Notes: a model not told the origin generated them from the sequence alone. Shown: positions 1,669-29,262, counted from the first letter of the whole stretch. The stretch: DNA of 62,953 nucleotides, filler included, from Octopus bimaculoides (GCF_001194135.2; 6 parts of 5 records of this genome joined end to end with filler, not necessarily neighbours in it), one strand, 5' to 3'. Translations and numbers: made by a program.

Positions 1669-1719
1669 TCCTAAGGTATTTTTCGATGTTTTTGTTGTTG
1701 TTGTTGTTATTATTATTAC

Positions 1720-1766
<47 letters not shown>

Positions 1767-1852
1767 TTATTATTATTATTCAGGTCACTGCCAGGAATCG
1801 AACTCGGAATCTTGGGGTTAGTAGCCCGCGGAGTTAACCACTACGCCATATA
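1669..1852 (-). mobile_element. PLE1 terminal module copy (tRNA-like head + (AAT)n; remainder in gap)
   Basis: Reverse complement reads TGGCGTAGTGGTTAACTCCGCGGGCTACTAACCCCAAGATTCCGAGTTCGATTCCTGGCAGTGACCTG-(AAT)n-AACATCGAAAAATACCTTAGGA, matching 48248-48360. Confidence 0.9.
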
Positions 1853-3010
1853 TCCCTACGTATATGTGGAGCTTAAGTGATAATTTTAATTTACTCCAAA
1901 ATACACACGATGAACGAAGATACGTAGATAATTGATGCTACATAATTAATATGTAATAACGTCAAATCCTTCTTTCTCTTATGCAACAAAAATCAAGTGT
2001 CTAATTGGAATTTTCTTCTTTCTTATTACCAATGTTGAGAACCCCTAGCTTCTTCCAGCAGGTTGTTCTACAAATGGTCCAGTGTAGCACATTGCTCTCA
2101 AAATATTTTTCCTTTCTCCTACTTTATGCGTGCACTACAGCCGTCTTGTATTTCATCGATTTTATATAGGATTATAGTTCTGTAGATCTTAAATTCTTAG
2201 ATCTGAAATTTCACATAATATCCCTTATAGGTTTTGTGAATACACCTGGTCAAATTGATATTTTAGTATCGTGCTGTCCCTTTTGAGGTTAAAATGTTAT
2301 TGTTTACAGCTATTTCATTTAGCTGCAAGTTTTGCTTATTTTACAACGTTAGATTTAATGGTTTATGTACTTTAAGAGATTTAGATAAAACCGAATGTTT
2401 AAGAAGATTGTTTCGCAATCAAACGTTACACTTTTGACTTCAGTGTATGAAATTTTATTCATGTCTCAATTAGCACAACATTAAATTGGCTATGCACTTT
2501 TGAATGAAATTGTAAGATAGAATCTCGGCGGGAAGAGATAGCACAGCTAGAATCTGTAATGGAAAACAGGAAATTTTTCTTACACTTTAATATAAAGATA
2601 CTCACCGAAAAAGAAGTTAACCAAATACCAGTCTCTAGAAAGCTCAGTCGGTAGCAACACTCGTACTTCGAGTAGGTAATTCGACAGCGGAAATTCAATT
2701 GTAAATAACTGCGAAACCAACGTTTGTCTATACTTTCTAGGTATTAATCAAGGTTATAAAGTTAGAATACTTATAAATAAACGTTGAATGTTTTTCCATC
2801 TGAATTGTTATAATAACGTAAAATTACTCATTTCACGTGGGGCGTTGTGAGGAATCGATTGCTTGTTTCTAAATTTTCATTTTGATATTCAAGTAACTTT
2901 GAACAATTACGATGTTCTGAATACTTTTGTGCACCTTAATATTTCTGGGGTAATTTATTTTCCCGTCTCACCTTTTGTACTGACAGCTCGAATATCATAT
3001 TTGTTTTCTT

Positions 3011-3187
3011 TATTTATATTTGACGGATATTCGTCCTCATCTTGTTTGATATTAACACAAGTTTCGGCTGATATACTCTCCAGTCTTCAACAAGTGTCTT
3101 GGGAAATTTCGAACCTGGGCATATGGCGTAGTGGTTAAGAGCGCGGGCTACTAACCGCAAGATTCCGAGTTTGGTTCCAGGCAGTGA

Positions 3188-3253
<66 letters not shown>

Positions 3254-3270
3254 TAATAATAATAATAATA
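3011..3270. mobile_element. PLE1 terminal module: inverted HHR-bearing tail (3011-3119) + forward tRNA head and (AAT)n
   Basis: Direct similarity to 47221-47335 and 48248-48340. The HHR core at 3054-3098 (-) is mutated. Confidence 0.9.
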
Positions 3271-3476
3271 AGGAATATAAGAGACGCCAAGACAATATAG
3301 CCATGCTTTCCTGTCGACACTCTGCAACAAGTATGGACTTAACATAGCAAAAAAACTGGTACGACCACAAGCCGGAAGGCATCGTCGAAAATAGAATTGC
3401 AATGATCCTATGGGATTTTAGGATTCAGTGCGACCATGAGATAGAGAATAGGAAGCCAGCCATAGTCTTAATTGAG
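3270..3476 (+). pseudogene. R4/Dong-like non-LTR retrotransposon fragment (zinc knuckle/RLE region)
   Basis: With frameshifts reads KEYKRRQDNIA...LCNKYGLNIAKK/WYDHKPEGIVENRIAMILWDFRIQCDHEIENRKPAIVLIE, matching the RHD...WY.H.P..V.EN...ILWDF.IQ.D.....R.PD motif of RLE LINEs. Confidence 0.8.
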
Positions 3477-4127
3477 ACATTTTGCCAGCTCACCGTCTAA
3501 AATTAACTTTACATATTATTCTATATTTTAAAATTTGGGTTGAGCGTTAGTTTCTATGTATTGAAACAAACTTCAACGTTATTACTTAAAAGAATATATC
3601 GCTAAAAGACACTAAAATCACATTTCGTATTTTCATACTTCTAGTTCAGAATCACTTATTCTTATAACTACAATAGCAATCATTGCCTTTGGTGCTCTGA
3701 TCGACGCTAAATAAATTGCTATGGGCTAGAATCATATGTAGTTGTGCGAGTTCTGCGACGTATTAAAAAAACAACACTAATATTGATGTTTTAATATAAA
3801 AGGAGATTATTAAATATTCCACGAAGTTTAATTACCAGCGTATGACATATTCGTAAATATTTCATAATGTTAATATCATAGTAATTTAGATGCTATATTT
3901 TCTCAAATATGTTCCATAAAATTGATGTTGAATCTTGTTAGGTTGTCGAATTGATGTCGGCATTATGATAAACATCAAATTTGGAATATCTAATGTCAGT
4001 CATAACATTGAAAAATAATGTAATTGTAGCGGGAATAAAATTTGCTTTTTCTAAATCCAAAAGTTAAAATCCCTTCGTAATAGTGTTAACAATGGCGACA
4101 TTGACATTAGATTACTTAGAAAAAAAC

Positions 4128-4270
4128 AGCAAGTTGACAGATTTGTTAACACACCGAGCATAATGCTTAGCCGTAATTCGTCCCCTTTACGGTCTGAATT
4201 GGTTTTTCATTTCGTCCGTCTTTACGCTCCAGTTCGACTTTCGTCCTTTCGTCCTTTCGTCGATAAAATA
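4128..4270 (+). mobile_element. Degenerate SINE family B copy
   Basis: Loose match to 62628-62760 (ATGCTTAGC.GTA.TTCGTC...TTCGACTTT...CCTTTCG..GTCGATAAA). Confidence 0.55.
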
Positions 4271-4519
4271 ATTATTAATCGACTTAAATTCTCCATCGAA
4301 TTCAAACATGCCTTTCAACCTGTTTAAAAAAAACAGCAAAGTAACGGTCAAATATTGGCATCGATAAAATCAATTTACCGCCTCCACCAAAACTTGTCGG
4401 CGTTCTGCCAAAATTTTGAACAACCGATAAAATTATTAATGTCTTTGGCATGATAAATATTGACATGTCACAATTTCAGATTATTAAGTGATTTTATGGA
4501 AATTTTTCTGTATTATTAG

Positions 4520-4660
4520 CGTACAAGTGGCTGAGCACTCCACAAACACACGTACCCATAACGTAGTTCTAAGAGAGAGTCAGCTGACACAGAATATGGA
4601 GAGGCTAGTCCTTTGAAATACAGATATTACTCATTTTCGTCAGGTCTGTAGACTGGGCTA
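4520..4660 (-). mobile_element. SINE F/C-type body and tail fragment
   Basis: CAAGTGGCTGAGCACTCCACA.ACAC..GTACCC.TAACGTAGTTCT matches 41510-41560. Confidence 0.75.
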
Positions 4661-4712
4661 CTGGGAAATGAAATGTTTTACTGAAGGAGACAACGTGCTG
4701 TAGGCTGCTGCA

Positions 4713-4766
<54 letters not shown>

Positions 4767-4853
4767 AATTCAAATAACAAAGATATAAAATAATTAATCG
4801 TGAGGACATGCACAAACAATATATTAATTTCACGCTCGGTGGAAGGAGTTGCT

Positions 4854-4880
4854 AACGTTTCGAGCATAGCTCTTCGTCGG
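4854..4880 (-). ncRNA. Variant hammerhead-like core (U4C), probably a decayed PLE terminal repeat
   Basis: Minus strand reads CCGACGA-A-GAGC(TAT)GCTC-GAAAC-GTT. Stem II is perfect; stem I is not convincing. Confidence 0.45.
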
Positions 4881-5635
4881 ATAGAAGAAAGTCTACAGAG
4901 AAAGAAGGAAGAATGAGGGGAAATATCCAACAATCCACGTGCGGTTAGATTACGTATATGTGTGTATACGGAGAGGGAGAGCGCGATCGAGAGAGAGAAG
5001 GTGTGTTAAAGAGAGTGAGAAAGAGCGAGAGAGAATGTGTACATGTGTGTGTGTGTGTGCATGAGAGAGAAGGAAACAACAACACATCCATGAAATTTGA
5101 ATAAGCTATATATTGAGGTATCTAATCAATATATTTTTGTATGAACACATACGTTACTCACACACGCAGTCTACACATATAGACAGACACACACACATAC
5201 ACGCGCACACACACACAAACACACATATACACACACATATATATGTGATGGACAGAGACACACATACAGACATGTAAAACTGTTACTGCGGTAGAACTGA
5301 ACAGGCAGAACTGAAAGCAATGGATGCAATTTATAAGGCAGAAGTAACTATTGACACGTGTTGTTCATTTATATTTAGTTATGCATTATAAAATGCAGTA
5401 TAAGATGGACACAAACGAAAATAATAGAAGGAAGGGAGGGTGAAAATGAAGGAACATGATAATAGAATGAAAGCGTGGCCATTGAAACGAGAAGAAGCAG
5501 TCATGTTGAGAACTTTTAAGAGGCGCAATTGCTTTAAATATAAGAATAAAATATACCATGATAAACAACTTTTTCTTTTTAAACTGAGAAAAAATATAGA
5601 ATAAATAATCATTTTCATTTTAAGCACAAGACCTT

Positions 5636-6004
5636 GAAACTTTTTTGGGGAAGGGGGCTAGTCAATTACAACGACTCCAGTGCGTAACTGGTATTTAACT
5701 AACTCATCGACACCGAAAGGATGAAAGGCAGAGTCAGCCTCAGCGGAATCTGAACTCAAAACATAGCGGCTGGTGAAATAAATACACCATTAATAATTAC
5801 TGCCGCCTTAAATATACCATTAATAATTACTTCGAATTTTGGCTCAAAGACAAATAATATGCTTTCTACTTTAGGAACAAGGCCTGAAAGTTTGGGGAAT
5901 GGGGATTGTCGATTACATTGACCTCAGTGCTCAACTGGTATTTAATTCATTGACCCCGAAACGATAAACGACAAAGTTGACCTCGGCGGAATTTGAACTC
6001 AGAA
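5636..6004 (-). mobile_element. Two adjacent SINE B copies (5636-5780, 5826-6004)
   Basis: Both carry AACTGGTATTTAA...GAC(A/C)CCGAAA.GAT.AA.G.CA.AGT...CCTC.GCGGAAT.TGAACTCA, the reverse complement of the family B core. Confidence 0.85.
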
Positions 6005-6621
6005 TATAATATTATTAATAATATCAACATAGAAACGTCTGCGTGTTTCACTGAGATGATCGCTTTGCACCTATGTGGATTTAGATACAGTCTACGCACG
6101 TGACATCTGGCGCATTTGGCTTTGAATATAACCCCAGGATAATCAATGCATTATAGACTGAAACTGCGTGGAAGCCGTTTGTATATATGGATTCTATGTA
6201 TGTGTGTATCAGGCGGGTACCATCAGTAATTAATGAGGGTAGGCAGTTGGTGAACTTTATGTAGTAAAACACACAAAAAGTGAGCGAAACAGGGACGCGC
6301 GATTGAATTGGCGGCAGGTTTACTTCTGCCTTTAATACACGTAAAGAAAATTGTGTTGTAGGAGTGTACGCAGCATGCGCACTACAGCAGTTCTATTCGT
6401 AGCTTAATACTGAGATTGAAAAGCAGGGCGAATTATGCGTACCTAATCTACAAAAATATATATTTTGCGTTTTATACATAGTAATCAGAGAAATCTTCAA
6501 AAATTTTATTCAATTAGATACATATTTTGCTATAAAAGGAAAATGTTGCTATCGATCTATTTTATTCAAGGTAGGCACTGCCTACCTTGCCTACCTAGGC
6601 GGCACATGTGTTTGTGTGTGT

Positions 6622-6730
6622 GTCTTTCTGTTTGTCGGCACCCACTACTTGTTAACCAGCGTTGAATTGTTTATGTTCCTGTAACCTAGCAGTTCGGCCA
6701 AATTGGTTGATAGAATAAGTATCAGACGTA
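6622..6730 (+). mobile_element. SINE A 3' fragment
   Basis: GTAACCTAGCAGTTCGGC...GATAGAATAAGTA matches 29600-29645. Confidence 0.7.
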
Positions 6731-7250
6731 AAACTAAACGCAAATCTCTATTTATTTGAGTAAAGACATCCAGGTGAAGACAAACCATGGCCATTGTCCA
6801 AATGACTGCAGGAAATATAAGAGATAAAAGATGAAATTCGTTATTGTCTGCGACAGTCAAATTTTATAGAAATCTAATTAAACCAAGTTTTCCAGAAAAG
6901 ACTTGTGACCGACATTAATGAGAGCGGTTTGTTAAAAAATCAGAAGAAATAGAAATATGTTGCAATCGTTGAACTGCAGACACGCTGGGAAAATGTTTTT
7001 AATGCTTCAAATGTATTGGCTGGCTGTCAAATCTGGGTACTCGCAGGCCAAGCGAGCATTTTACCACTAAACTATTAATGTACACACCTTTGAAAATTCT
7101 CAGTTATTAAAAGATTTATGAAATAGATTTAAAATGGTCGATTTACTATTAAAAAGGAATCAAAAGATATGGAAGTGATGTTTGCAAAGATATTTGTAAA
7201 ATGGTTTTACTTATATGAAATAGAATATGTTGCATGACAATAATACATTA

Positions 7251-7522
7251 TTTATATTATTTATAATTGACGGATATTTGTCCTCATTCTGTTCGTTGTT
7301 AACACAACGTTTCGGCTGATATACCCTCTAGCCTTCATCAGGTGTCTTGGGGAAATTTTGAACCTGGGTTCTCATTCCTAAGGTATTTTTCGTTGTTGTT
7401 ATTATTATTATTATTATCTTTATTATTAACCAATACGCCACATAGCCATAGGCATATGGCGTAGTCGTTGAGAGCGCGGGCTACTAAACCCAAGATTCCG
7501 AGTTCAATTCCAGGCAGTGACT

Positions 7523-7576
<54 letters not shown>

Positions 7577-7619
7577 GTAACACCAACATCGAAAAATACC
7601 TTACGAATGAGAACCCAGG
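7251..7619. mobile_element. PLE1 terminal module: inverted tail (7251-7430) + forward head, (AAT)n and start of tail running into gap
   Basis: Near-identical to 47221-47360 and 48248-48375. Confidence 0.92.
7301..7346 (-). ncRNA. Minimal type I hammerhead ribozyme (PLE1 family)
   Basis: GACAC-CUGAUGA-A-GGCU...AGCC-GAAAC-GUU-GUGUU with intact core. Confidence 0.75.
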
Positions 7620-8243
7620 NNNNNNNNNNNNNNNNNNNNNNNNNNNNNNNNNNNNNNNNNNNNNNNNNNNNNNNNNNNNNNNNNNNNNNNNNNNNNNNNN
7701 NNNNNNNNNNNNNNNNNNNNNNNNNNNNNNNNNNNNNNNNNNNNNNNNNNNNNNNNNNNNNNNNNNNNNNNNNNNNNNNNNNNNNNNNNNNNNNNNNNNN
7801 NNNNNNNNNNNNNNNNNNNNNNNNNNNNNNNNNNNNNNNNNNNNNNNNNNNNNNNNNNNNNNNNNNNNNNNNNNNNNNNNNNNNNNNNNNNNNNNNNNNN
7901 NNNNNNNNNNNNNNNNNNNNNNNNNNNNNNNNNNNNNNNNNNNNNNNNNNNNNNNNNNNNNNNNNNNNNNNNNNNNNNNNNNNNNNNNNNNNNNNNNNNN
8001 NNNNNNNNNNNNNNNNNNNNNNNNNNNNNNNNNNNNNNNNNNNNNNNNNNNNNNNNNNNNNNNNNNNNNNNNNNNNNNNNNNNNNNNNNNNNNNNNNNNN
8101 NNNNNNNNNNNNNNNNNNNNNNNNNNNNNNNNNNNNNNNNNNNNNNNNNNNNNNNNNNNNNNNNNNNNNNNNNNNNNNNNNNNNNNNNNNNNNNNNNNNN
8201 NNNNNNNNNNNNNNNNNNNNNNNNNNNNNNNNNNNNNNNNNNN

Positions 8244-8299
<56 letters not shown>

Positions 8300-9582
8300 T
8301 TTGTGCTCACACGTTTCAGCCAGTAGAATATCGAGGGCATGGCAGCCAAAACAAGAGAAGGCCGAGGAGACTCGAAAAATACGAAATGACGTAAGTTACT
8401 CAATGTAATATCATGAATTGTCTGGCGAAGATATCAAATCAAACTTCTTGCGCGCAAGAATTTGACACCCGAAATACACGTTGATATGGGTGTATTGATT
8501 CCTTAATAATGATGAAATTTATATACAAGGTCAACATAACCGAAGCACAATGTCATTTTGCCAATGTCAAAATTAATTTCCAGGGAAGAAAATTATTTAT
8601 GGTTATTGCCTTGTTAATATTTTCTTAACACGTCAAAGAAATATTCTTTGGAGTAAATCATAATAGTAAGTTATGTGTAACACGAAATGCTTCGTATTCT
8701 ATTTCCAACAAAAGTCACTTTTTTAGACAGCATTCATACGATTTCCTACATTTATTTTAATTAATTACGAACAATATGATAAAAACATGACGCATTTCTA
8801 AAAGACCACTTAATAAATTTAGATAAGTGCTTTTCCAATCGTCTTCTGTGTGATAGCATTGAATATATCACCTCCTCCTCCCTCCGTTTTACTTCGCGTA
8901 AATAAATAACCAATGGAATAAAAATCTGAGGGAGAACAGGGAATTTGAATTAAGGGAATCGTTGTATAGATACGCAAAAAAAAAATATCAATTGAAAAGG
9001 AAATGCGTGGACAGGAAGTGAAGTAATACATTTACACATTCGTACATGTGTATGTATGTATATANNNNNNNNNNNNNNNNNNNNNNNNNNNNNNNNNNNN
9101 NCGTGTGTGTGTGTGTGTGTGTGTGTACGTATATGTGCTTGTATGTATATATATATATATATATTTATTTATACATATGTGGTTATGGTATATTCTGTTA
9201 AGAACGCAGTACAGTACAAAATAAAGATAAAGCTAGTCCACCTTCAGATTTCACCCTGTACTATCCAGTAGTAGTATTATACGCACTTCCAGGTTAGCGT
9301 TTGGGCATCTATCGTGTGTGATTAGATGACTGAAAAAAATTGGAGCCAACAAGAAATACGATTTGACATATATTTTCAAACACTACAATTCTTTCTAAGC
9401 AACGTATCTCACCAGGCGTGCAGGTAATTTATTATGCACCCTTCCCTATAAACGCTGTATTATTTAATCAAATCACAAATAAAATGATGCGAGATACAAT
9501 ACAACTCCAAACGAATTTCTTTCCATTCGATTTAAATATCGATTGTTGTAAGGTATAAGATGGTGAAGAACTATAATTTCCT

Positions 9583-9908
9583 TCATCTTGGGGTTTGTAG
9601 CCTACGCTTTTAACCACTACGACATATGCTCGTGGGCGTAGTGGTTTAGAGCGCGGGCTACTACTCCAAGATTCCGAGTTCGATTCCAAGCAGTGACCTG
9701 AACAATGATAATAATAATAATAATAACATCAAAAATAGTTTAGGAATGAGAACCCAGGTTCGAAATTTCACCAAGACACCTGATGAGGGATGGCGGGTAT
9801 ATCAGCCGAAACGTTGTGTTAACAAAAAACAAAATGAGGACATATATCCGTCAAATGTAAATAATGTAAATAATGTACATAATTCCTCCTCTCTCAAATA
9901 TAGTACTG
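9583..9908 (+). mobile_element. Complete ORF-less PLE1 terminal module (9628-9908), preceded by an inverted copy of its own head (9583-9625)
   Basis: A box, B box (GAGTTCGATTCC), (AAT)n, HHR at 9775-9820 with a stem II mismatch, and end motif CTCTCAAATATAGTACTGT. Confidence 0.92.
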
Positions 9909-11091
9909 TATGAAACCTCTTGTTATCATACTGTATTTTTACATTGGTGTTAGTAATAACACACATACACACACACATACACACACACACACACACACGC
10001 ACACACACACACACACAGACACACACACGCACAGGCGCACGCACTCACACTTAGGTGCGCAGATTCGCAGCATCTTTTCTACCATAAACATTGATGTCTC
10101 ACATGTCGATAGGTGACAAGGGGTCTAGCTACATTTGTATTTATGCTTTTATGAATCTGCTTACGTATTTATCACTATGTTTCTATGGCTCTCTATGCGG
10201 TGATTAATATTTTGATTTTTGTTTTTTACTGTGCTGAAAAAGTATCTATTGCTGATATTAACCAGTCACTCTAATATACACAGGAAAAGTGAAAAAAAAA
10301 AAAAAAAAACCTGTTAATAGTTTCTTTTTTTTTTTATTGGTTATGTATATCATTTTCCTGTTTTCAGTTACCACGTATCTCTTCCTTTGGGTATACATTA
10401 TTGAAAAGATGTGTTCACATTCACACATTTAATTATCATGATTCATATTACCAAAAGAATGTTTCCTGTGTATGATGAATAAATATTTCTGTATATATAT
10501 AATACATCTATTTAGCATCTGCCTACGAATATAATATGTTCAGCTAGAACACTTTTTTTTTATTTTCTCAGTTGCAGTTTTTTTTTTTTTTATGATTGTG
10601 AGGCTGAAGGTCAAAATTACTGGCGACAATCTAAATAACATATATGTCTTTGCTGTTTTCATATTTCATAGTAATCTATTATTATTCAGTTGAAGAAGGA
10701 GGATGTGGCGTTCCCCTAGTGGCAACCGTCGTTGTAGCAACATATGTTGCTTGACATACAGTAATATGTAATAAGACTCCCGAACGAACACATCCACGCA
10801 GAAAATTATACAATGCTTCGGGAATCTTTATTTTATCGTCTATATTGAGTACATATTTCAGGAAACCATTCACGTAACGTGTAATAAGAACCAGAAGCGT
10901 ATAATAATTAACTACGGGATATTTACGGTTTATATGCTAATGTACTTGTGTCGTATTAGAAATAAATAAGGCAAAGGAAGAATACGCAAATTAGTATTCA
11001 AATTGTAATGTATAATGAACTTTATGAGAATACCGAATAAATGGCTCTTCATGTCTATATATGTGTATGAGTGAGTGAATGTGTGTGTGTG

Positions 11092-11142
<51 letters not shown>

Positions 11143-12426: not shown

Positions 12427-12462
<36 letters not shown>

Positions 12463-12899: not shown

Positions 12900-13013
12900 G
12901 TTATAATAACAATAGTAATAATCATATCGATGAAGATAACGATAACGGTATTTACGACGGTGATGACAATGATGTTGATGATGACGACGATGATGATGAT
13001 AATAATGATGATG

Positions 13014-13055
<42 letters not shown>
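12900..13055 (+). repeat. Compound (GAT)n/(AAT)n microsatellite
   Basis: Read directly; it explains the poly-D/N/I ORFs here. Confidence 0.95.
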
Positions 13056-16654: not shown

Positions 16655-17334
16655 AAAGCGGGGCTTATTCCTTAATTCTGTTCTTATAATTTTTTCACTA
16701 ATCCAGTAACAACAATACAAAGTGTGTAGCTCTTAAAACGGGTTTTGTGCATTTATTGCGAATAGCGAACTGTCTTACACAGGATCTTGTTTTTAGGAAT
16801 TCCCAATAAATTATGAATACACAAATTATGAAGTCAATTGTGTAATAGCATTAAATTAGTTACTCAATAGTAAGAATTCAAATAAAGTAGCCCCGAAAAG
16901 GACTTTAATACGTTCCAAGATGATAGAGAACTTAGGACGAAATACGAATAAGGTATGTATATAAAATCGTGAAGCATGTTACGTAATGACAGGGTAATCA
17001 GATATGAGATACTAACATTTCAAAGTAAATAACGGTGAAAAAAGCTTTTCTGCGTTCGCAGAGAATATTACCCTCGCTGGTGCTAGTGTTGGTATATTCG
17101 TAAATAAGTCACTAAGCGAAATAAGTGGATCTATTGTTTAGGAGAATACTATTTACTTGTTTAAGCGTTGTACTGGATAAATTACGAAAAAAACCTCAAA
17201 TAGTTCAAATACTAAGAATTAAGCATACCCAATTTGATTTAAACGAAATAAGTTACGAAAGGTTATTTCCTTTGGCTCTATATAAGAATCCGTTTCAGGA
17301 GCGAATGGGTTATCTCCCTTGTATGTATGTATGT

Positions 17335-17668
17335 ATGCATGTCTCTTGTATTTTTTAATTATTATAAAGCTTCCATTTGGCATGGAGCCAGTTTCCAACA
17401 ACGATACAAGACCCTAACTTTGGGATGATGTTAATGCAGACAAATTCACATTTGGAACTTGAGAAATGTCTTGCATATTTTTACTGTTCTACTCATAGAT
17501 TGGATTTGTAATGTACAAATCAGCTGGCCGATTTCTCTTTCTGAAAATCCCAGTTTATCCAGATTCTTCTTTAAAAATTTACTAACACAACCGCGTGCTC
17601 CAATTATTATTGGTATGAATAGGAATTCATAGTCTGGGTATAGAAGCTGGAGGTTTCAAAACAGATAC
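17335..17668 (-). pseudogene. 3' end of an RLE-type (R4/Dong/NeSL-like) LINE: ORF C-terminus 17655-17446 plus 3' UTR
   Basis: NLQLLYPDYEFLFIPIIIGARGCVSKFLKKNLDKLGFSEREIGQLICTLQIQSMSRTVKICKTFLKFQM* contains the P++GA.G motif and K+.KTFL end of RLE LINEs. It is absent from the ORF track because the frame has no early Met. Flanked by (CATA)n. Confidence 0.8.
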
Positions 17669-17677
17669 GTATGTATG

Positions 17678-17708
<31 letters not shown>

Positions 17709-20427
17709 TGTAGAATCTCACATGACCATCCTTAGCATTGAACTCACCTTATTGAAATTTACGTGGCGAGTCTGTTGGAAATGTGAATTAGATATGAAAT
17801 AGCATTCAGTTCCGTCAGTTCAGTAGGTATGCTTACAGGCGAAGGAGTTTGCTAGCAAAAATCGTATGATTATTATGGCGGACATTCTTCAGCAATTATT
17901 TTCCGTTGGGGTAAGCCATAGTTGCAGGCAGCGTCGGATTGAAGGATATAAAAAGATGAGAAAAATTCATGGCTGTACTCTATATAATAGATACATTTAT
18001 CTATAGACAATAATTAGCTACGGATATGGAATATGTCTGTGGAGCTTCAGCAAAAAGCACAGTTTTATTTCAGTGCTTAGTGATGTAACGTGGTGGCGAA
18101 TCTTCGCATATATGCATAAGGGCACGGTAAATTTCTATTTGTGTGTGTTTTTGTGTGTGTATTTGTGTGTGTATGTATACTACTGTCCCCTATACGGGTA
18201 GAGGTACACATACACACACGTATATATATATATATATATATATATNNNNNNNNNNNNNNNNNNNNNNNNNNNNNNNNNNNNNNNNNNNNNNNNNNNNNNN
18301 NNNNNNNNNNNNNNNNNNNNNNNNNNNNNNNNNNNNNNNNNNNNNNNNNNNNNNNNNNNNNNNNNNNNNNNNNNNNNNNNNNNNNNNNNNNNNNNNNNNN
18401 NNNNNNNNNNNNNNNNNNNNNNNNNNNNNNNNNNNNNNNNNNNNNNNNNNNNNNNNNNNNNNNNNNNNNNNNNNNNNNNNNNNNNNNNNNNNNNATATAT
18501 ATATATATATATACATATATATGTATATTTGTATGTACCATGAGATAGGAAGTGTTTGCGAGAATTGAGAAAGGAAAAAATTCGGAGAAGACAGAATTCA
18601 GAGAGACGAGATCGAGTAGCATAAAGATATAAAGAAAATGAATTTGTAAAAGATAAGAGAAGGTTGAGAATAAACTAAATAAAATATATAAAAAAAAAAC
18701 GCTACAGCGAAATGGTGAAAAAGCTCCAAGGTTAGAATGAAGTAATGAGGTCGAAAAATAACCTAAGATTTCATAAGTAAATGAAAAAAACAAACAGGGA
18801 ATATTAGATAAGTATGTTTAAAAGAGAAGAGAAAAAGATATTATGTTTGGATATCCGAGAACAAAGAAAATAACATAAATGAAGCATAACTAAGGTAAAC
18901 ATTAGGATAAAACCAGTATATTTGTGTGTGTGTGTGTGTATATACATATTTGTATGTATGTATTATGTATGTATGTGTGTATGTATGTACGTACGCATAT
19001 ATGTATGTTTGTACGTCTGCAGGTATGCATGTGATCATGCTTGCATTTATGCATGCGTATATCTATATATATGGAGAGTGTGAAAAAGGAAATATCGAGA
19101 AAAAGAGCAAGATAACATAATTGGAAGTCCTGATGTGTTGATATGGTGGCAGCGTTTAGAGAACGAATACGTCGTTAGAGGATAAATAGGAAAGAAAAAA
19201 GAAAAGATATTGAATTAAGTTCGATCTAGGAGAGAAAGAGCCAGATAACGAAGTAGAATTAGAGAGAGAGTATGTACACATGACGTTATTTATAAAATCA
19301 AATAGAAGTAAATACAGAAAAAACATGCGCACCACTCTTAAAAAAGCGCACATAATACAAGAAATACAACATAGAAAAAAAAACGGTATATAAATGAGCG
19401 AACCGGCTTAGGTTCAGCAGTAAAAATATAAAAAGAAAAAATATATGAATACCAAGAAAGGGGGAAAAAAACTAATGAAGTATAGGAATAGTAAAAAAGG
19501 TAAAAACAAAACATAGATAAGATGCAAAAAATGGATAAATCAATGTACACTCATCTGCACTTGTGTGGATTCATTGCCAGACGTACCATGCGAAATGAAT
19601 GACGAAATACATGTGGTAAGCAGCATTTACTGTCAATACTGACAATAGCAAACTAGTGTTCTTACGCAAATACGCTGTGACAGATTTAGACTGATTTTAA
19701 AGGAAGATTTTAACTAAAAATAGTTGTACAATTAATGGCAATTTAAAACGTTTTTCCTCGCATTATTTATATATTCTTATATGGTATCCTGTAATATTTT
19801 TTTATTGTGACTGACAAAAAGCGTAATGTTAGTAGACACGCATAGAGCGACACGCATACAAAGTATAAAAACGTATACTAATATTTTATTACAAACTAGA
19901 AAAACAAATAACGCTCTGAAGGAGTGTAATATTAACACTTACGTTAGATGGCAGTGCCATTGTAAAAACAACATGCACACACACACACACACACACACCT
20001 CGAAATGTATGTGTGTGTATATTTATATATATATATATATTTATTTATATGTATGTGTGCGTGCGTGCGTATTTATACATACATATATGTAAACATATAT
20101 ACGTGTATGTAAGTTTTTATACACACACACATATATTATAAGAAACTCGAATACCATTTAAAACTTACGACATTGTTTCGGTAGAACTTTAGTCAATGTA
20201 GTCATAAAAGATTACGTAATAATAATAATGTTGGCTGTGTTCTGGTCGATTATATAAAAGTTTACTTAATAATGGTGGATTTTATATAATGTTGCAATCT
20301 TTTATGACAGTATTAAATAAAATTTAACCGAAACAGCTGTCATACATTTTAAACGCGATTCTTCCTTATAAATTTACTAGCAGAGATACACGGCATTGCT
20401 CGAGATTAAAATAGAATAGTTTGTATA

Positions 20428-21086
20428 TATCAGGTCACCCCATAAGTCCTGACCGTGTTTTCCCTTTGTGTTAATTGAATGAAATTTAATTTTTTTTTAG
20501 GATGTCTAATGGAATTAAAAATTGTTTTGATCCCTTTGTGTGTATTTAAACTAATTAAATATTATTTTATAGAATAATAGAATTAAAGATTATATCATGA
20601 AAGTATCCAAAGAACATTTAAGGCACATAATGCTTTATGAGTACAAAAAAGGAAACTCTGCAGCCGAAGCGACTCGAAACATACACTCAGTTTATGGGAA
20701 ACAATGCTTGAATGAAAGAAGTTGCACAAGATGGTTTGCAAAATTCAGAAGTGGAGATTTCAGCCTTGAATATGAAGATCGAACAGGACGTCCAGTTTAG
20801 TTTGATGATAAGCTCCTTGAGGCATTACTTGAAGAAAATCCTGCATTATCAGTTGAAGAATTGGAAATAAAGCTTAGTTCAAACGATACAACTGTTCATC
20901 GCCATCTTCAACCACTTGGAAAGGTTCCTAAACTTGGAAAATGGGTGCCACATGAATTGTCCGAAAGCAACCACAAATGTGGTTTGACATTTGCTCTTCA
21001 CTCCATTCTCGTGAACTAATTTCACCGTTTTTAGATCGACTTTTGACTTGTGGCGACAGATAGATCTTTTATCGAAATGCTAAACG
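20428..21086 (+). mobile_element. 3'-truncated mariner transposon (left TIR + N-terminal transposase pseudogene from 20597)
   Basis: TA-TCAGGTCACCCCATAAGT left end; MKVSKEHLRHIMLYEYKKGNSAAEA...RWFAKFRSGDFSLE...GRP*, then WVPHEL and a frameshifted FLDRLLTCGD. No second or third catalytic Asp and no right TIR seen. Confidence 0.92.
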
Positions 21087-22374
21087 TCATATGTTAAATA
21101 CTTACTTATTGACTATAAGAAGACATAAGGGGGGATGGGCGAAACTGTTGTGATTTTTATATGCCTGTCTGAGATACAAAATGAACCCCAACATAATATG
21201 ATGCATTTAATCATAATTGTACCGGCTCTTGCAGTTCCTGAACCGATCAGATATGCTTATTATTTCTGCAACACCAGTTCTAATACACTACCGAATGGTC
21301 TAGCTCAAGTGTGAAAGTCGATAGTATTTACGAAACAACGAAATCAAAAAATATTCGCAATTTTGCAGATTTACTAGAAAATATACGGCTACAGCGTTTG
21401 ATCATCGCCTATTACATTGGATAAAAGATCAATTCCATCGCTCACAATGCGTATTCAATAAGAACGGAGAAACCTAATCTTGATTGGTAAAGGAGGATAA
21501 CAATTCAGTAAACGTGTTTTCACAAACATGTATCAATAAATCTTATTGATTAATGTAATCTTTCGATATTAAATGAATATTCTTGTTTACTACATACATT
21601 CAAATTCATCTGATGTTGTTAAGCAAAAAGTATCACAGCTACGAGCATAATACCACAATAATTACATAGCATAAACAGAATCTAAAGCCACACTTAATTT
21701 TGTGGGTTCAATGTCGTGAAAACCCCATTTTCTTATATCTCAAAATATTTGACTGCTGGGTCTTCTGAAACGAAGCAACAGTATGTATCCATTCTTTCGA
21801 TTCTTACTTGTGTGTGTATAGATTATTTAAAGGAAAAGTAAATAGATGTTCGTCTAAGGTGAAAGATATGATAATAATAAAAATTAGATATGAGGGAAGC
21901 AGAATATCAGAACAAAGTAAAGCTTTGGTCAGGACTATGTAATCTATTGTGACCTATTGTTAATCTTTGATAACAAGTATACGAGATATAGAATGAATGG
22001 ATCTCCAGAAATCCAATTTTAGTGTTGAATGGCGTGAATCCTTTGGGCTTAGGGTTGCACAAAAGAGTCGATTCATCTCTGTATAAAATGTTAGATAAGA
22101 AAAGATGGGCAGTATTAGAAATTGTTTGAGCAAAAGGTAAAAAATCAAATGACTGTTTGAAAAAAATAAGAAAAAAAAAGGAACAAAAATAATCTCATAA
22201 TCTTCTGGATTATAGTAGGACGAAAACATTGACGCCGGTGACCGAAATGCATAAAAATGAATGAAAAGAAATGTTGAAAGAATCTGCCACACAAACATAA
22301 ATGCATACACCGTGCATATATGCATGCACAAGGCCATACACTTACACTCATAAACACACACATGCGCACACGTG

Positions 22375-22447
<73 letters not shown>

Positions 22448-23065
22448 ACATACATACATACATANNNNNNNNNNNNNNNNNNNNNNNNNNNNNNNNNNNN
22501 NNNNNNNNNNNNNNNNNNNNNNNNNNNNNNNNNNNNNNNNNNNNNNNNNNNNNNNNNNNNNNNNNNNNNNNNNNNNNNNNNNNNNNNNNNNNNNNNNNNN
22601 NNNNNNNNNNNNNNNNNNNNNNNNNNNNNNNNNNNNNNNNNNNNNNNNNNNNNNNNNNNNNNNNNNNNNNNNNNNNNNNNNNNNNNNNNNNNNNNNNNNN
22701 NNNNNNNNNNNNNNNNNNNNNNNNNNNNNNNNNNNNNNNNNNNNNNNNNNNNNNNNNNNNNNNNNNNNNNNNNNNNNNNNNNNNNNNNNNNNNNNNNNNN
22801 NNNNNNNNNNNNNNNNNNNNNNNNNNNNNNNNNNNNNNNNNNNNNNNNNNNNNNNNNNNNNNNTATATATATATATATATCAAAAGGATGTGTTATAATA
22901 CTATTCCACATATACTAAAGTAGCCATACCAACAATCCAACATATCTCCATCATCAGCTGCCCCACGAATATCATTACAGTATCGACAACTTGGCACTAC
23001 CATTCAATCCTGTGATGTCAACAGCACTAATATATATATACATATGTGTGTTTGTGTGTGTGTAT

Positions 23066-23285
23066 TCTCCCACTTGTTTCAGTTATTTGTCTGCGTCCAT
23101 GCTGGAGCACTGCCTTCAAGAAATGTTTTTAGCCGAAGAAATCGACTCCAGGACTTATTTTTTATGCCTAGCACTTATTCTGTCGGTGTGCTTTGCGGAA
23201 CCACTAATTTACGGGGAAATAACCACACTAATATTGGTTGTCAAGAGATGGTGGTGGAGACAAACGCAGACAGAACGTCACACAC
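23066..23285 (-). mobile_element. SINE A 3' half
   Basis: CTTGTTTCAGT.ATT...CATGCTGGAGCACTGCCTT...CAGGACTTATT is the reverse complement of 49380-49480. Confidence 0.85.
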
Positions 23286-24041
23286 ACATAAGGTATGATA
23301 TATCTCTTGAACAACACATTGACACATATACATATATATATGCACACACAGAAACATTTTATGTGTTTCTAATGTACGTGTTTCTAATGACGTTAACTGC
23401 GAGGATTCTTTTAGTAGGCCTGTGTGTGAGTTTGAATTTGTGAATACGTTTGTGTGTGAGTCTATATGTATTTTTCTCCGTGTATTTTAGGATGCATATA
23501 TGTTTGTGACCATGCAGGCTTTAGGAGAAACCGAATCATAGAAAAAACAGAAGTTAAAATGCTGATGTAAATCATAGTAAAAATGAATTCATTATGTTTG
23601 TAGAAAGTCCGTACAAATTACAAAAATGTGGATGCGATGTATATTAGAAGGAAATTGCTAAATAGACCCCTGGAGACGACCATCTAACTCAGAAGCATAC
23701 AATTTTGGGGGGATCATTTAATTGTACTCCTCCACGCCGAGTATTCCAGCCTCCTGATATTTTCCAAGATCGTGGAAAATAACCACATACATTTCACTCT
23801 CTAACAACAGACCGTCCTAAGCGTAAGCTGCGTAAATACGTTAAAGATCCATGAATTAAATGCATGTAGGAACAAAATATGTAACGGCGACATATTAACC
23901 GCATTTCAATTCATCAGCGCATATTCAGAAGAGGAAGCCTGTAACGCATAACATTTTATGGAATCCCAACTTCGCATATGTGTGAGGAAGACGTTTTGGG
24001 AGAACAATGCCAAGTACGGTAGTTTTAATTCATCTCTTAAG

Positions 24042-24089
24042 AGCTGACGAGACTACAAATCTAGAAGCAACATTCAGTGATTCTGAAAG
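24042..24089 (+). CDS. Candidate 48-nt internal exon of an unknown host gene
   Basis: TTTTAATTCATCTCTTAAG acceptor, AAG|GTAAGT donor, and only one open frame (ADETTNLEATFSDSE), symmetric phase 2. No homology evidence. Confidence 0.3.
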
Positions 24090-25031
24090 GTAAGTGGAGA
24101 TAATTTCATGAAATAAGATTAAATCTGTAAAGTTAATTCACTTGCTTAGGGAAAGAACGATATTTCGCTTAGAAATTAAATTTATTTAGAAATTAAATTT
24201 ACTTGAAAAATTAATTACAATTTTTTCTTGATTATTTCCATGTTTCCTGTAAAGTAGCGAACAGTTGCCGCCATACGATTACGTTCATTGTACAATCATG
24301 GCGAAATTTTAATCAAATGAGAAATGTTTGCAATGCATTTACTGTGACCACGTTAATTATACGAAGCTCATTGTATTTTGAAATATGTGAAAGAGTATGA
24401 AAGAAGAGAGAAAAGAAAAGCGATCGATTTGGAAGTAAGGCCACTTGTTCAATACAATGATATCACTAGAAAAACATATGATAGTAATTAGTTGTATGAC
24501 GGCTGATGTTAACCTCAACTAAAAACGTACAAGCGCGGGAATGAAGAGTCTGGAATCACTTTGTAAGCATTATTTTTGTGACCGACTAATGCTAAACTGC
24601 AGATATTCTTAGAATATCTGATCTCACATGTAAGGGTAGATATTCCTCTATTTCATTTCATGAACAGCATTATCCCAACGCGATGATTTTCTTTATCTAT
24701 TTCTTTTTTTTTTTGTTAGGTCGAAATTGCAATCAGATTTCCCCATCCGATGGAGGTTATATTTAGATGCGAATGAAATTTCAACATACATCGAGTTACC
24801 TTTGCCAATATACCCAGTTTGGCATATGGTTATTCAATTTGCAGAGGAAAATGAGTTAGGGATCTGAGGTGTCTTTCTGAAGCCAATATATTTGAATGTA
24901 TATGAATACAATATGCGACAAGTTTTGCTTTCAAAATGGAACCTATACCAGGAAATAGTTAATAACTGTGAATTTATAGGTTTGTTTACTAGATGTACTT
25001 GGCCGTACTATATATATATATATATATATAT

Positions 25032-25131
25032 NNNNNNNNNNNNNNNNNNNNNNNNNNNNNNNNNNNNNNNNNNNNTTAATTAATTAANNNNNNNNNNNNN
25101 NNNNNNNNNNNNNNNNNNNNNNNNNNNNNNN
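25032..25131. other. Assembly spacer N44-TTAATTAATTAA-N44 (also 33256-33355, 37587-37686, 49941-50040, 60362-60461)
   Basis: Five identical 100-nt cassettes; the 12-mer places stops in all six frames. Confidence 0.97.
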
Positions 25132-25325
25132 ATATATATGTATGTATGTATTATATATTATATCCACACGCATACTACACACATTTTTGAATCGATGTGA
25201 ATGCACTGTTTCCTTCTATGTAGACTCACACACACACACACACACAGAGACTCATGTCTCTAAATACAGACTCTTCATTCTACATGTACTATAATAGGAA
25301 TACATAAATCGAAGGCTGTCGCTTT

Positions 25326-25377
<52 letters not shown>

Positions 25378-26476
25378 CACACACACAGAGTCACATAAAT
25401 GTTCATTTCTTTGATTCGGCCTTGTAATGTAACTGTTTGTGTATGCATGTTTGTGTGCTTATGTGTTTGTGGAGTGTGTGTGTGTGTGCGTGTGTGTGTC
25501 CGTCCGTTCATTCCCCTATATGTTTATTTACACATGCTGTCTGCCTATGATAGAAGTAATACAGTAATACGAGGCGTTGGTACTAAAAGCTAGAAATAAA
25601 ATAACATCTGAAAACTTTCTGTTTCCTATTCCTTCTTCTTCTATCATTCTCTATCCTTCTCCCTCTTCCGCTCCCTTTCTCTCGCTCTCTCTCCCTCTCT
25701 CTCTCTAACTAACCCTGCAAAACCGTCTTCAAGAGTCCCCACAACTCTTATTTTTTTAATAATCTACAGCGTTGAAAGTATTCCTTTACCAGAACCAAAC
25801 AAAAATAAGCAATATAACTTTATCTTTGTGTATTTTTCCTGTGTATTTTTCTTATCAACGTAATTCTTTGAACGTGGCTTCAGATTCCGATAGGCCTTGT
25901 AAATCTTTTGTCAGTGTGACCTAACTACACCAATAGTCATGTTTTCACATCTAATTTAAGAATTTGTTTCATGTCTCTTCGTATATCGTTCAACTTCAAG
26001 TCAAATAGAACTAAAATAATTTATTCTTGCTTTAACTTGGATTCTCAGTTCCTTGGTGGAGTTTTAAGGATGCCTTTGCGACATTCGGTGTGTTTTGGCC
26101 ATTTTTAGACCCAGTTCTCTGCCGCTTTGAGCACTGCTGATTTATTCCAGGAGTGGAAAGCCACCGACCTTCTTACAAGACGAACCCTTTACTTATCTGT
26201 CTTTAAAGAACCAAAGATTAAGTTGACATTAGCCGGACTTGAACTCATGGCGCAGAGCAAAGTCTGTTACCACAGAGTAATCTATGCGACGCTCTAACGA
26301 TTCTGCCGATCGGCCACCCATAATTTAGGTCTGAGGATTGTGGTTCGAACGAATCGTTAGATACAATGGCTTGCGGTATTTACTACGTCCAGTTATGGTG
26401 GGAGTTTAGTTTCCCCTGAGATCGATGTCTCACCGTTGTATGATTGATTAAATACACATCTTAATTAAATTAGAAT

Positions 26477-26678
26477 TGGTTTCAAATTTTGGTACATGAC
26501 CTACAAGTTCGGCGGATTCCATCGAACCGAGTGCTCAGCTGGTAATTACTTTATCGATCTCGAGAGGATGAATGCCAAAGTCGACCTCGGAAGAATTTGA
26601 ACTCAGAACTTAAAGGCAGACAAAATTCCACTAAGCATTTTCCCCGGCGTGCTAACGACTCTGCCAGCTCGCCGCCTT
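26477..26678 (-). mobile_element. SINE B, near full length (degenerate copies also at ~26180-26320 (-) and ~26345-26440 (+))
   Basis: Reverse complement starts AAGGCGGCGAGCTGGCAGAGTCGTTAGCACGCCGGGG.AAATGCTTAG, as at 62628. Confidence 0.9.
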
Positions 26679-26705
26679 TCATTAAGTTAATATTAGCATA
26701 TTCAT

Positions 26706-27093
26706 GTGGAGGCACAATGGCCCAGTGGTTAGGGCAGAGGACTCGCGGTCGAAGGATCGCGGTTTCGATTCCCAGACCGGGCATTGTGAGTGTTTATTGA
26801 GCGAAAACACCTAAAGCTCCACAAGGCTCCCACAGGGGATGGTGGCGAACCCTGCTGTACTCTTTCACCATAACATTTCTCTCACTCCTTCTTCCTGTTT
26901 CTGTTGTGCCTGTAATTCAAAGGGTCAGCCTTGTCACACTGTGTCACGCTGAATCTCCCCGAGAACTACGTTAATAGTACACGTGTCTGTGGAGTACTCA
27001 GCCACATGCACGCTAATTTCACGAGCAGGCTGTTCCGTTGATCGGATCAACTGAAACCCTCGTCGTCGTAACCGACGGAGTGCCAAAAACAAC
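26706..27093 (+). mobile_element. SINE C, full length
   Basis: A box TGGCCCAGTGG, B box GTTTCGATTCCC, tail CGTAACCGACGGAGTGCCA + (AAC)n; copies at 41422 and 43189. Confidence 0.95.
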
Positions 27094-27362
27094 ATTAACA
27101 TATTTAATGCAGTTGGTTCGACAAAATAAATCGATGAAATATATGCCCTATTGAAAATAAGTGGTTGGCTAAGAATTGTTGACTAAATTTCTCCTTGCTA
27201 GTGCCCAATATTTTGTGTTTATTTGTTTTATGGAAGAATCAACCCCACCCCTCTTTCTTCCCTACAAGACTGACGAAGCTAACTTCTCATTGAACAACTT
27301 CCAGGCGACAATCTGTAGGAAAGCATTTCGGAACCATGCTGTAATGAGGAAGAAAGATTGGT

Positions 27363-27638
27363 CAGGAGGGACTGTGTGGTAAGGAGCTTGCCTACCAACC
27401 ACATGGTTCCGGGTTCAGTCCCACTGCGTGGTACATTGAGCAAGTGTCGTCTACTATATCCTCGGGCCGACCAAAGCTTTGTGAGTGGATTTGGTAGACG
27501 GAAATTGAAAGAAACCCGTTGTATGTGTGTGCATTTGTGTGTCTGTGTTTGTCCCCCTCACCATCGCTTGACGACCGATGTTGGCGTGTTTACGTCCCCG
27601 TAACTCAGTTCGGCAAAAGAGACCGATAGAATAAGTAC
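27363..27638 (+). mobile_element. SINE A; a second piece of its 3' end recurs at 27932-27972
   Basis: GACTGTGTGGTAAG...GGTTCAGTCCCACTGCGTGG tRNA-like head and internal (GT)n. Confidence 0.92.
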
Positions 27639-27919
27639 ATTTAAGACCAATTTATCACTGTTTTACTCTGTGTTACAGTTCTTGTTTGGCCTGGTGTGTT
27701 GTGTGCCTTCTCTGTCGAATTGTTTATACAGAATGGCGAATGCGGAGATATTTTGTCACGTGTATCTAACATTACTTGTTGTTCTCTGTACAAAGCTAAT
27801 ATAAGTTTAAGAGTGTGGGGGGGGGGACAAGCAAACATATGAAGCAGATTAGATATCAAAGCGAATACAGTTAGAGACCTGAATAGTTTGTGACGATAAA
27901 GGTAGTATTTTCTTAGCCC
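27639..27919 (+). repeat. Unclassified interspersed repeat E, copy 1
   Basis: About 280 nt aligning by eye to the reverse complement of 31138-31418. Confidence 0.85.
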
Positions 27920-28185
27920 GTATTTTATTACAGCGGTTCGGCAAAAGAGACCGATAAAATAAGTAGTAGGTTGACGCGTGGTGCTAGATGATTAGGTGTG
28001 ACTAAAGGGTTCTGGCTAGAGACGAAATATCTCCAGAAACACTGACCGCTGCCCTAACGATAAAAATGACCGAGGGGACAACATGTTTTGGAAGCTGAAT
28101 GTGGTGTACTGCTAAGTGACTTCAAGCGAAAAGTTTTATTGGATTTAGTTTAGATGTTGCCAACTCTATCACTATGTTTAGAGAA

Positions 28186-28505
28186 GGCGCGTGACTTCGT
28201 GGTTGGAGGTATTTGGCTCACCACCCCAAGGTTGCGAGTTCGATTCCCGGCGGCGCGTTGCGTCATCGAGTAAAACTCTTTATTTCACGTTTCTCCAGTT
28301 CACTCAGCTGGCAAAAGTAAATTCAACCTGTATTTCAAAAGGGCCAGTTTTCTCACACCCTGTGTCACGCTGAATCTCCCTGTGAGCTAATTATGGATGC
28401 GCGTAGTTATAGAATACTCAACCACTTTCATGTTAATTTCGTGAGCAGGCTGTTCCGTTGATCGAATCAACTGGAAAACACGTCGACGTAACCGACGGAG
28501 TGCCA
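28186..28505 (+). mobile_element. SINE with family F head/core and family C tail
   Basis: B box GAGTTCGATTCCC; core TTTATTTCACGTT.CTCCAGT.CACTCAGCTG shared with 59218-59450; tail CGTAACCGACGGAGTGCCA shared with 26706. Confidence 0.88.
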
Positions 28506-28732
28506 GTTTTTATGTTTAACAATAAGAACGTCCCAAAGGTAGGAGAAATAGTTTATTGCTCTCTGAGAATCACATAGAGCTTATCTTCTGGTGAGTGTTC
28601 AGAAGACCTTGAAGCTGATCATGACAATATCTATTCCCGAAGAAAATAGCGAGATCAAATGAATATACGCAATTCATTAACAGAGTTGCGTGTATAACAT
28701 TTATGCTTTGTATACAAACAATACAACAGAAT

Positions 28733-28926
28733 ACAGTTCTATATTTCAGAGATGAGGAATTATGTACAATATTTACATTTGACGGATATTTGCCCTCATC
28801 TTCTCTGTTATTAACACAACGTTTCGGCTGATATACCCTCCAGCCTTCAATAGGTGTCTTGGGGGAAATTTCGAACCTGAGTTCTCATTCTAAGGGTATT
28901 TTTCGATGTTGTTGTTGTTGTTGTTG

Positions 28927-29025
<99 letters not shown>

Positions 29026-29262
29026 TTCACGTCACTGCCTGGAATCGAACTCGGAATCTTGGGGTTAGTATCCCGCGCTCTTAACCACTACGCCATATGC
29101 CCGTGGACCTTAGGAATACCTTAGGAATGAGAACCCAGGTTCGAAATTCCCCCAAGACACCTGATGAAGGCTGGAGGGTATATCAGCCGAAACGTTGTGT
29201 TAACAACAAACAAAATGAGGACAGATATCCGTCAAATGTAAATAATGTAAATCATGTAAATA
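28733..29262. mobile_element. PLE1 terminal module inverted pair: full copy on minus (28733-29106) + forward tail (29115-29262)
   Basis: The arms 28760-28905 and 29115-29255 are reverse complements of each other. Confidence 0.95.
29156..29201 (+). ncRNA. Minimal type I hammerhead ribozyme, best copy
   Basis: Stem I GACAC/GUGUU; core CUGAUGA plus an extra A; stem II GGCUG/CAGCC; GAAA; loopless palindromic stem III (ACGU); predicted cleavage after GUU (29196). Confidence 0.8.

Follow-up and report, generated by a model that had tools for sequence, protein, structure and literature searches.

Why does a short repeat without any open reading frame (ORF) begin, copy after copy, at nearly the same nucleotide? 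The question is raised by a window of 62,953 nt from Octopus bimaculoides (GCF_001194135.2), the whole stretch of DNA analysed here, which consists of six joined stretches. A module made up of a tRNA-like head, an (AAT)n tract and a hammerhead ribozyme (HHR) recurs in it, both at loci that lack an ORF and downstream of the ORF of a Penelope-like element (PLE), PLE1; these loci fall in three of the six stretches, and PLE1 and the first stretch lie on different contigs. A sequence-only reading of the window had taken the ORF-less copies for a non-autonomous family with promoter-defined transcripts, mobilised by a PLE rather than by a long interspersed nuclear element (LINE). The explanation that we favour, at about even probability, sees in the ORF-less copies short inserted pieces of the PLE's end repeat (pLTR); most of those that reach the head stop there, probably because the RNA of the element starts at that point, likely at an RNA polymerase III (Pol III) promoter. 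Positions such as -8, 0 and +12 are counted from window position 48248, where the PLE1 head has its first G.

Self-comparison and alignments place pieces of the module, 77-96% identical, at all five ORF-less loci (1669, 3011, 7251, 9583 and 28733) and at PLE1. A complete head-(AAT)n-HHR unit had been described at each of the five; the pieces are there, but a contiguous unit on one strand is visible at only two, 9635-9914 (+) and 28731-29106 (-). The tally of six loci in 63 kb likewise holds for loci that carry pieces and gives no density, the window being six packed stretches. A head-to-head inverted partner accompanies the module at four of the five ORF-less loci and at PLE1. The hammerhead core CTGATGA is intact at 7341 (-), 9780 (+), 29161 (+) and 47308 (-), and mutated at 3011, in the minus copy at 28733 and in PLE1's own 3' copy. 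The six ORF-less heads of the window begin at -7, -5, -1, 0, +3 and +7, within a few nucleotides of the head start as the sequence-only reading had it; its start for GTGGGCGTAG, given as 9628, is actually 9632.

The same edge holds genome-wide. A sample blind to the 5' end was anchored on 93 exact hammerhead matches, taken from the first ones on one contig, and on 30 matches of the 3' piece, again the first. These 123 copies end in the tail (43), end in (AAT)n (16), are cut by N (5) or reach the head (59). With one duplicate removed, 58 head-reaching copies remain: 6 stop within the 65-nt head body, 46 stop at -16..+12 and for another 6 the end is further upstream, so that 46 of the 52 copies reaching those 29 nt end within them (~88%). 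The ending rate is 0.074/nt at the head start, compared with 0.0017 in the head body (binomial P ~1e-54) and 0.0021 in the ORF, which argues against random 5' truncation, as had been proposed. Systematic sampling of 100 regions of 10 kb gives 9 heads, 8 of them starting at -15..+13, and 24 of the 29 best module matches have the head-start edge. Counts of 21-mers over the genome, made with CpG sites neutralised, are 928 (-33..-13), 965 (-13..+7) and 3,953 (0..+20), a rise within 13 nt. The 5' ends are spread over -8..+5 with a sharp upstream limit, and their histogram is a peak at the head and not a smooth distribution. Since 41 of 88 head-start copies adjoin unrelated flank with no element neighbour, the peak does not depend on fold-back; an inverted partner is present at 41 of the 88. 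The 40-nt windows just upstream of the edge are unstructured, and more stable windows downstream are mostly passed. Two further piles of ends were rejected: the one at tail position 18 is a 9-nt subfamily deletion and not a truncation, and the one at -16 arises spuriously from 2 nt by which the reference copy differs, the copies in it extending further upstream.

Because the A box starts at +6, the edge sits where a tRNA-type promoter would be expected to start transcription. The A- and B-box patterns of the PLE1 head follow what we take to be the tRNA-type promoter consensus; the boxes are 45 nt apart in 34 of the 38 copies that have both, and among 94 solos, the copies of the module without an ORF, the A box is kept in 39 and the B box in 67.

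To judge from the sequences, the module is the regular pLTR belonging to an abundant PLE of Poseidon type, because it has the same inverted partners, the same two 3' ends and the same subfamily marks. PLE1 (47404-48491) is a 5'-truncated member of this family. Copies picked by the ORF terminate in this module, with 5' ends smoothly spread upstream (26 ends over 12,334 nt at risk, 28 copies). Among 30 loci picked by the 5' part of the ORF, a direct module piece stands immediately ahead of the ORF in 18, and an inverted copy lies past the ORF in several. The PLE tail comes after the head in 8 of 9 cases in the systematic regions and in 166 of 185 cases in a sample partly chosen by its tail, 12 of the 185 being followed by other sequence. 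Locus L341 is open over 791 codons and matches Pfam RVT_1 (E=1e-10), which indicates a single ORF with a reverse transcriptase (RT) domain. By eye, its translation has a C-terminal GIY-YIG-type motif, two Cys between motifs and no zinc-finger linker; the Pfam GIY-YIG model gave no score on it. These features fit Penelope/Poseidon, for which the available text of PMC8557442 gives GIY-YIG with two Cys between motifs and no zinc-finger linker as the definition. The predicted hammerhead cut lies 70 nt after the ATG that opens the frame. In window 48362-48484 and in L141-L170 the ORF starts inside the module and reads through the hammerhead; a variable 9-nt repeat within the ORF and the 9-nt subfamily deletion just upstream of the ATG both leave the frame intact.

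The family is large. Exact 21-mers of the hammerhead and the 3' piece occur 5,360 and 6,447 times in the 2.34-Gb genome, calibrated copy totals are ~17,000-20,000, and 19 tail pieces in an 858-kb systematic sample suggest up to ~45,000; head-bearing copies number ~12,500 and copies bearing the 3' untranslated region (UTR) 3,800. Contigs of the organisms labelled A and C carry the element in all 30 bins. Four insertions within 25 kb (window 1-25031) amount to ~10x the density of the systematic sample, which has 13 loci in 858 kb.

Comparison of 94 head-start with 30 ORF-linked modules gives no division into two families. The single column that separates them (p=0.0008) was discarded as a CpG base inside the search anchor, and no other column does so. 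On a tree the labels change 25 times, compared with 26.9 when shuffled (103 of 500 as low), and net divergence is 0.0005. A subfamily marked by the 9-nt deletion and head variants includes 3 of the 94 solos, 2 of the 30 ORF-linked modules and the full-length copy L341. Use of the two 3' sites is alike, 51:42 in head-start and 12:17 in ORF-linked copies (p=0.29). No foreign leader common to solos was found among the head-start copies, and many of them retain the PLE's own -8..-3 leader. In L258, L349 and L355, two of them loci picked by ORF, the head start is fused directly to ORF-internal positions, which fits template jumps at an RNA end. The separate non-autonomous family is thus not borne out: the head is the autonomous element's own pLTR, and solo and ORF-linked modules share a subfamily and are unseparated in a comparison of low power. 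Nor do the sequences support a distinct SINE (short interspersed nuclear element) or retrozyme lineage. The head of a SINE would be absent from its partner element and is here present in the autonomous PLE; a SINE would be LINE-mobilised through a common 3' tail, and here 3' end and junctions are of PLE type.

In the hammerhead, helix I and helix II are 5 bp each, a bulged A precedes helix II, and helix III is palindromic and has no loop. In the hammerhead alignment 96% of 80 cells are paired, with no covariation among these near copies, and Rfam does not detect it. Minimal hammerheads of PLE type, and opposite-strand pairs 100-700 bp apart, are described in PMC4209133 as far as its text was available. 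Copies end at two 3' sites ~33 nt apart and retain 50-90 nt past the cut site, so that their template is uncut RNA and cannot be the ~190-nt RNA from head to cleavage site (184 nt in PLE1) that had been envisaged. Such paired 3' ends are published for PLEs; together with the inverted partners they support the proposal that PLE and not LINE machinery made the ORF-less copies.

A mechanism that would produce such copies can be outlined. Pol III would bind the A and B boxes of a pLTR that precedes the ORF and start ~6-13 nt upstream of the A box. The element's RT would prime on nicked AT-rich DNA, start at internal sites just inside the ORF start, copy ~250-300 nt of RNA whose hammerhead is uncut, and then either run off the RNA 5' end, leaving a head-start copy, or jump to another template. 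Run-off from RNA of the upstream pLTR would thus yield an ORF-less module whose 5' end is fixed and whose masters are those of the ORF copies, and ORF-bearing copies would need a template with the ORF before the head (tandem, circle or template jump). In the anole element PAc, according to the part of PMC11167929 consulted, RT starts 111-118 nt into the ORF yet depends on the first 172 nt, and RNA left uncut serves as the main substrate. If the PAc rule holds, RNA from a solo or a 3' pLTR would lack the needed downstream part, and only the pLTR-ORF junction would serve as a template.

In a further, less supported step, the same Pol III transcript would continue through the TTTT-free ORF and serve as the mRNA. 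L080 (2,558 nt) has no TTTT run and L341 (2,751 nt) has one, specific to that copy; over 148 segments (129 kb) each TTTT site is confined to at most 4 of 29-60 copies. TTTT is present in only 4 of 124 modules, and the first run lies at a median of 340 nt from the head. The 2.75-kb sense strand therefore has no conserved TTTT and would allow Pol III transcription of the whole element. The probability of zero runs is 0.003 under a third-position model and 0.005 under base shuffling; 15 control frames of transposable elements from the same loci, 10 named by Pfam, 2 by BLAST and 3 by apparent resemblance, hold 36 TTTT runs against 31-39 expected. Ribozyme cleavage is linked to cap-independent translation in the available part of PMC13725137 and, by analogy, offers one translation route for uncapped RNA. 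That the octopus PLE, an autonomous coding element, is transcribed over ~2.9 kb by Pol III from a captured tRNA-type pLTR promoter, purged of TTTT, translated without a cap and the source of tens of thousands of run-off leader copies is a tentative proposal, somewhat improbable as it stands.

A number of observations weigh against Pol III starts and against whole-element transcription in particular. RNA made by Pol III would be uncapped, which raises the question of how the ORF is translated. The evidence for TTTT scarcity is weak under dinucleotide (P 0.07) and codon (P 0.08) shuffling; two other PLE families lean low (9 runs against 37.8 in blocks that are non-independent; TTC:TTT 18:4), one of them has a T-rich pLTR without a visible head, and the scarcity may be wider than the headed family. 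A head upstream of the ORF is kept in only 3 of 30 full-length copies, one of them starting at +11. The tRNA head of the sequence-only reading survives in part: the boxes stand at tRNA spacing, but neither ARAGORN at default settings (0 calls) nor Rfam calls the head a tRNA. With relaxed settings ARAGORN labels some heads Ser(act), though amid much noise, and the best 150 of 201 Rfam matches over the whole window are microsatellite matches only. The upstream edge coincides with a 5-bp palindrome spanning -8..+3, and rotifer PLE pLTRs with 5'-end palindromes and TATA- or initiator (Inr)-like motifs are described in the available part of PMC3846280. Unstranded mRNA-seq of the related organism C has no start pile at the head; its reads cover the element, their depth step at the head mirrors the DNA, and 62-72% of them continue into flanks. 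Two small piles of read beginnings (2857 and 2958) lie away from the head and come from one run each. These data cannot test short or unadenylated Pol III RNA. Since 0 of 121 branches of the module tree are strongly supported, many short-lived solo masters would go unseen, and the requirement for RNA past the RT start site is borrowed from another species.

Such masters are what a PLE-dependent SINE would have: Pol III would read solos or 3' pLTRs to the first T run of the flank, the PLE RT would copy the RNA in trans, and solos would beget solos. The surplus of head-bearing over UTR-bearing copies, the boxes that many solos keep and the rarity of TTTT in modules agree with this. According to the portions of the two papers available, rotifer pLTR sequence alone can move other RNA (PMC3846280) and non-autonomous PLEs are known (PMC8557442). 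It is unlikely, if not negligibly so, given that solo-specific variants or clades are missing, that 3' ends are not shifted to the shorter site, that the solos have no foreign leader in common and often the PLE's own, and that the anole PLE needs RNA beyond its start sites. The edge could also be a pLTR boundary that owes nothing to Pol III, set by a Pol II start or by self-priming or stalling at the -8..+3 palindrome, with the head an old SINE remnant in the 3' UTR. The palindrome coincides with the edge, fold-backs at it make up some junctions (L171, L180 and L289), a few ends gather at other short palindromes too, and there are published pLTRs of fixed length that have 5' palindromes together with TATA/Inr-like motifs (PMC3846280, as far as available). 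Yet the ending rate is ~40-fold above the rest of the head, local folding is unexceptional, 41 of 88 head-start copies are without an element neighbour, the head is almost never without the PLE tail, and the edge lies where the boxes predict a start; we consider this explanation quite improbable.

Two alternatives remain. As a non-LTR retrozyme (LTR, long terminal repeat), the module would be excised by its hammerheads, circularised and copied from RNA circles; it has a type I hammerhead with a palindromic helix III, and retrozymes have been proposed as PLE derivatives in the available part of bioRxiv 10.64898/2026.07.22.740005. Such a circle has no 5' end to produce a peak, however, and the observed ends are at the head and not at the cut, where a peak was sought and not found (4 of 30 copies end 3-8 nt past it, at a palindrome). 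Among 268 cores in the examined loci, no same-strand, head-to-tail pair occurs within 700 nt, and the label retrozyme-like is dropped; excision into circles is highly improbable. A LINE-mobilised tRNA SINE with an (AAT)n tail, which acquired its hammerhead later, would account for the SINE-like order of head and (AAT)n and for the absence of a hammerhead after (AAT)n at 3117. It is scarcely credible beside the PLE tail that follows most heads and the PLE-type 3' ends and inverted partners. Of all these explanations, insertion of pLTR leaders by the PLE from RNA that starts at the head is the one we prefer.

Table 1. Coordinates, strands and supporting details of module copies, PLE1 parts and recurring repeats in the window.
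Feature	Position	Strand	Basis or remark
Head-start copy: tRNA-like head, (AAT)n, first tail bases	1669..1851	-	5' end ~+3; remainder masked by N gap 1533-1668
Inverted 5'-truncated partner, decayed hammerhead	3001..3119	-	alignment
Head and long (AAT)n, then unrelated sequence, without forward hammerhead	3117..3270	+	5' end -1
Inverted partner, hammerhead core intact	7244..7424	-	core match, alignment
Head-start copy: head, (AAT)n, tail start	7452..7619	+	5' end 0; N gap from 7620 cuts copy, hides HHR
Inverted head piece, 3 nt common with forward copy	9585..9637	-	starts at -7
Complete ORF-less module, ends at downstream 3' site	9635..9914	+	starts +7; hammerhead ~9775-9820, predicted cut after 9815
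Complete ORF-less module, hammerhead core mutated	28731..29106	-	starts at -5
Inverted partner, intact minimal hammerhead	29108..29262	+	predicted cut after 29196
Inverted pLTR piece at PLE1 5' end, hammerhead core intact	47174..47362	-	core match, alignment
PLE1 broken, 5'-truncated ORF end (RT thumb, GIY-YIG-type endonuclease) and 3' UTR	47404..48247	+	~90% identical to copies extending into full RT
PLE1 pLTR tRNA-like head; A box 48254-48264, B box 48299-48307; 5-bp palindrome -8..+3	48248..48325	+	boxes at tRNA spacing
PLE1 (AAT)n, in-frame ORF ATG 48362, minimal type I hammerhead 48391-48436, upstream 3' end site ~48484	48322..48491	+	predicted cut after 48431
Recurring repeats, family group 1	26705-27087, 41432-41813, 43192-43525		self-comparison of window
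Recurring repeats, family group 2	27363-27638, 29329-29664, 38639-38945, 46006-46322		self-comparison of window
Recurring repeats, family group 3	5603-6009, 39716-39937, 62624-62856		self-comparison of window

Other repeats lie in and around these copies. A foreign piece at window 3271-3490 (+) is inserted in the AAT tract of a module, and L065 has a similar piece after its (AAT)n. The sequence after 3270 has no match in Pfam, PDB or the Atlas; in translation it presumably resembles the endonuclease region of an R4/Dong-type non-LTR element, and the AAT tract may be an insertion target for R4/Dong-like elements. Window 418-747 (-) holds a GIY-YIG piece (Pfam PF01541, E=0.0009) of a second, C/T-rich PLE family, of which there are 7,280 first-look candidates; the 14 copies examined are short or gapped. 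At window ~43900-45700 (-) lies an old broken RT-like piece of another PLE-like element, with a SINE-like repeat inserted. A third PLE family (L344:50-2536 (-), L371-L377) has a zinc-finger-like linker, a T-rich end repeat and its own hammerhead-like motif; it has no visible tRNA-like head, yet its TTC:TTT ratio is 18:4. At least three other interspersed repeat families recur across the stretches, some with tRNA-SINE-like fronts.

Among known systems, the schistosome repeat SM-alpha is transcribed by Pol III. It is a SINE-like repeat with a type I hammerhead (PMC8490949, in part); the octopus module, in contrast, is the end of an identified autonomous PLE, with a hammerhead of minimal PLE type. 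Closer in layout are PAc of Anolis (PMC11167929) and Pen2a_Av of Adineta (PMC3846280), which, in the text available for each, have a single RT and C-terminal GIY-YIG-type ORF starting inside the pLTR beside the hammerhead, pLTRs in direct and inverted orientation, an optional tail of 30-40 nt that stems from two RT start sites, strong 5' truncation and solo pLTRs. The overall octopus layout matches PAc and the PLE layout in the part of PMC8557442 consulted. Unlike these elements, the octopus pLTR begins with tRNA-type A and B boxes and (AAT)n, where ~88% of reaching copies end, and its sense strand is without conserved TTTT; the rotifer pLTR is described, in the available text, with TATA/Inr-like motifs. 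The minimal metazoan PLE hammerheads of PMC4209133 share the 5-bp helix I, the bulged base ahead of helix II and the palindromic, loop-less helix III, which is predicted there to need a dimer. They are mostly single motifs, with opposite-strand pairs 100-700 bp apart ascribed to truncated PLEs, and the portion of that paper at hand mentions neither a tRNA-like head nor a 5' peak.

Nearest to the proposed promoter are the TRIMp3 elements Cassandra, Helenus and Ajax, which carry a small-RNA-derived Pol III promoter in a terminal repeat, thought to derive from SINE insertion (PMC10886601, in part). They are non-autonomous LTR elements of at most 1.3 kb, whereas the octopus repeat belongs to a coding PLE of ~2.9 kb; according to the author, in the same available part, autonomous partners must use Pol II. 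Metazoan non-LTR retrozymes are, like the module, short hammerhead units related to pLTRs (available parts of PMC7229834 and bioRxiv 10.64898/2026.07.22.740005), but form tandem arrays giving circles; none of the 268 octopus cores is in tandem. PLE anatomy is already published, and the putative tRNA-type promoter is the new part within the literature searched, which yielded no report of a PLE with a tRNA head or with transcription by Pol III; Repbase, Dfam and supplements, outside that search, may catalogue the family.

The element bears on two questions, the transcription of PLEs and the origin of their short copies. If the RNA does start at the head, ~ten thousand copies would mark where an autonomous element has the 5' end of its RNA, at an internal tRNA-type promoter, and the sharp edge makes that promoter directly testable by 5'-end mapping. 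Were Pol III to read the whole ORF, the usual split between coding retroelements, transcribed by Pol II, and SINEs and TRIMp3 elements, transcribed by Pol III, would be broken. In Octopus vulgaris, 893 of 900 recently active SINE families are unclassified (PMC13282606, in the part available). Even the weaker reading would give a route to SINE-looking repeats without a SINE master, which matters for genome annotation.

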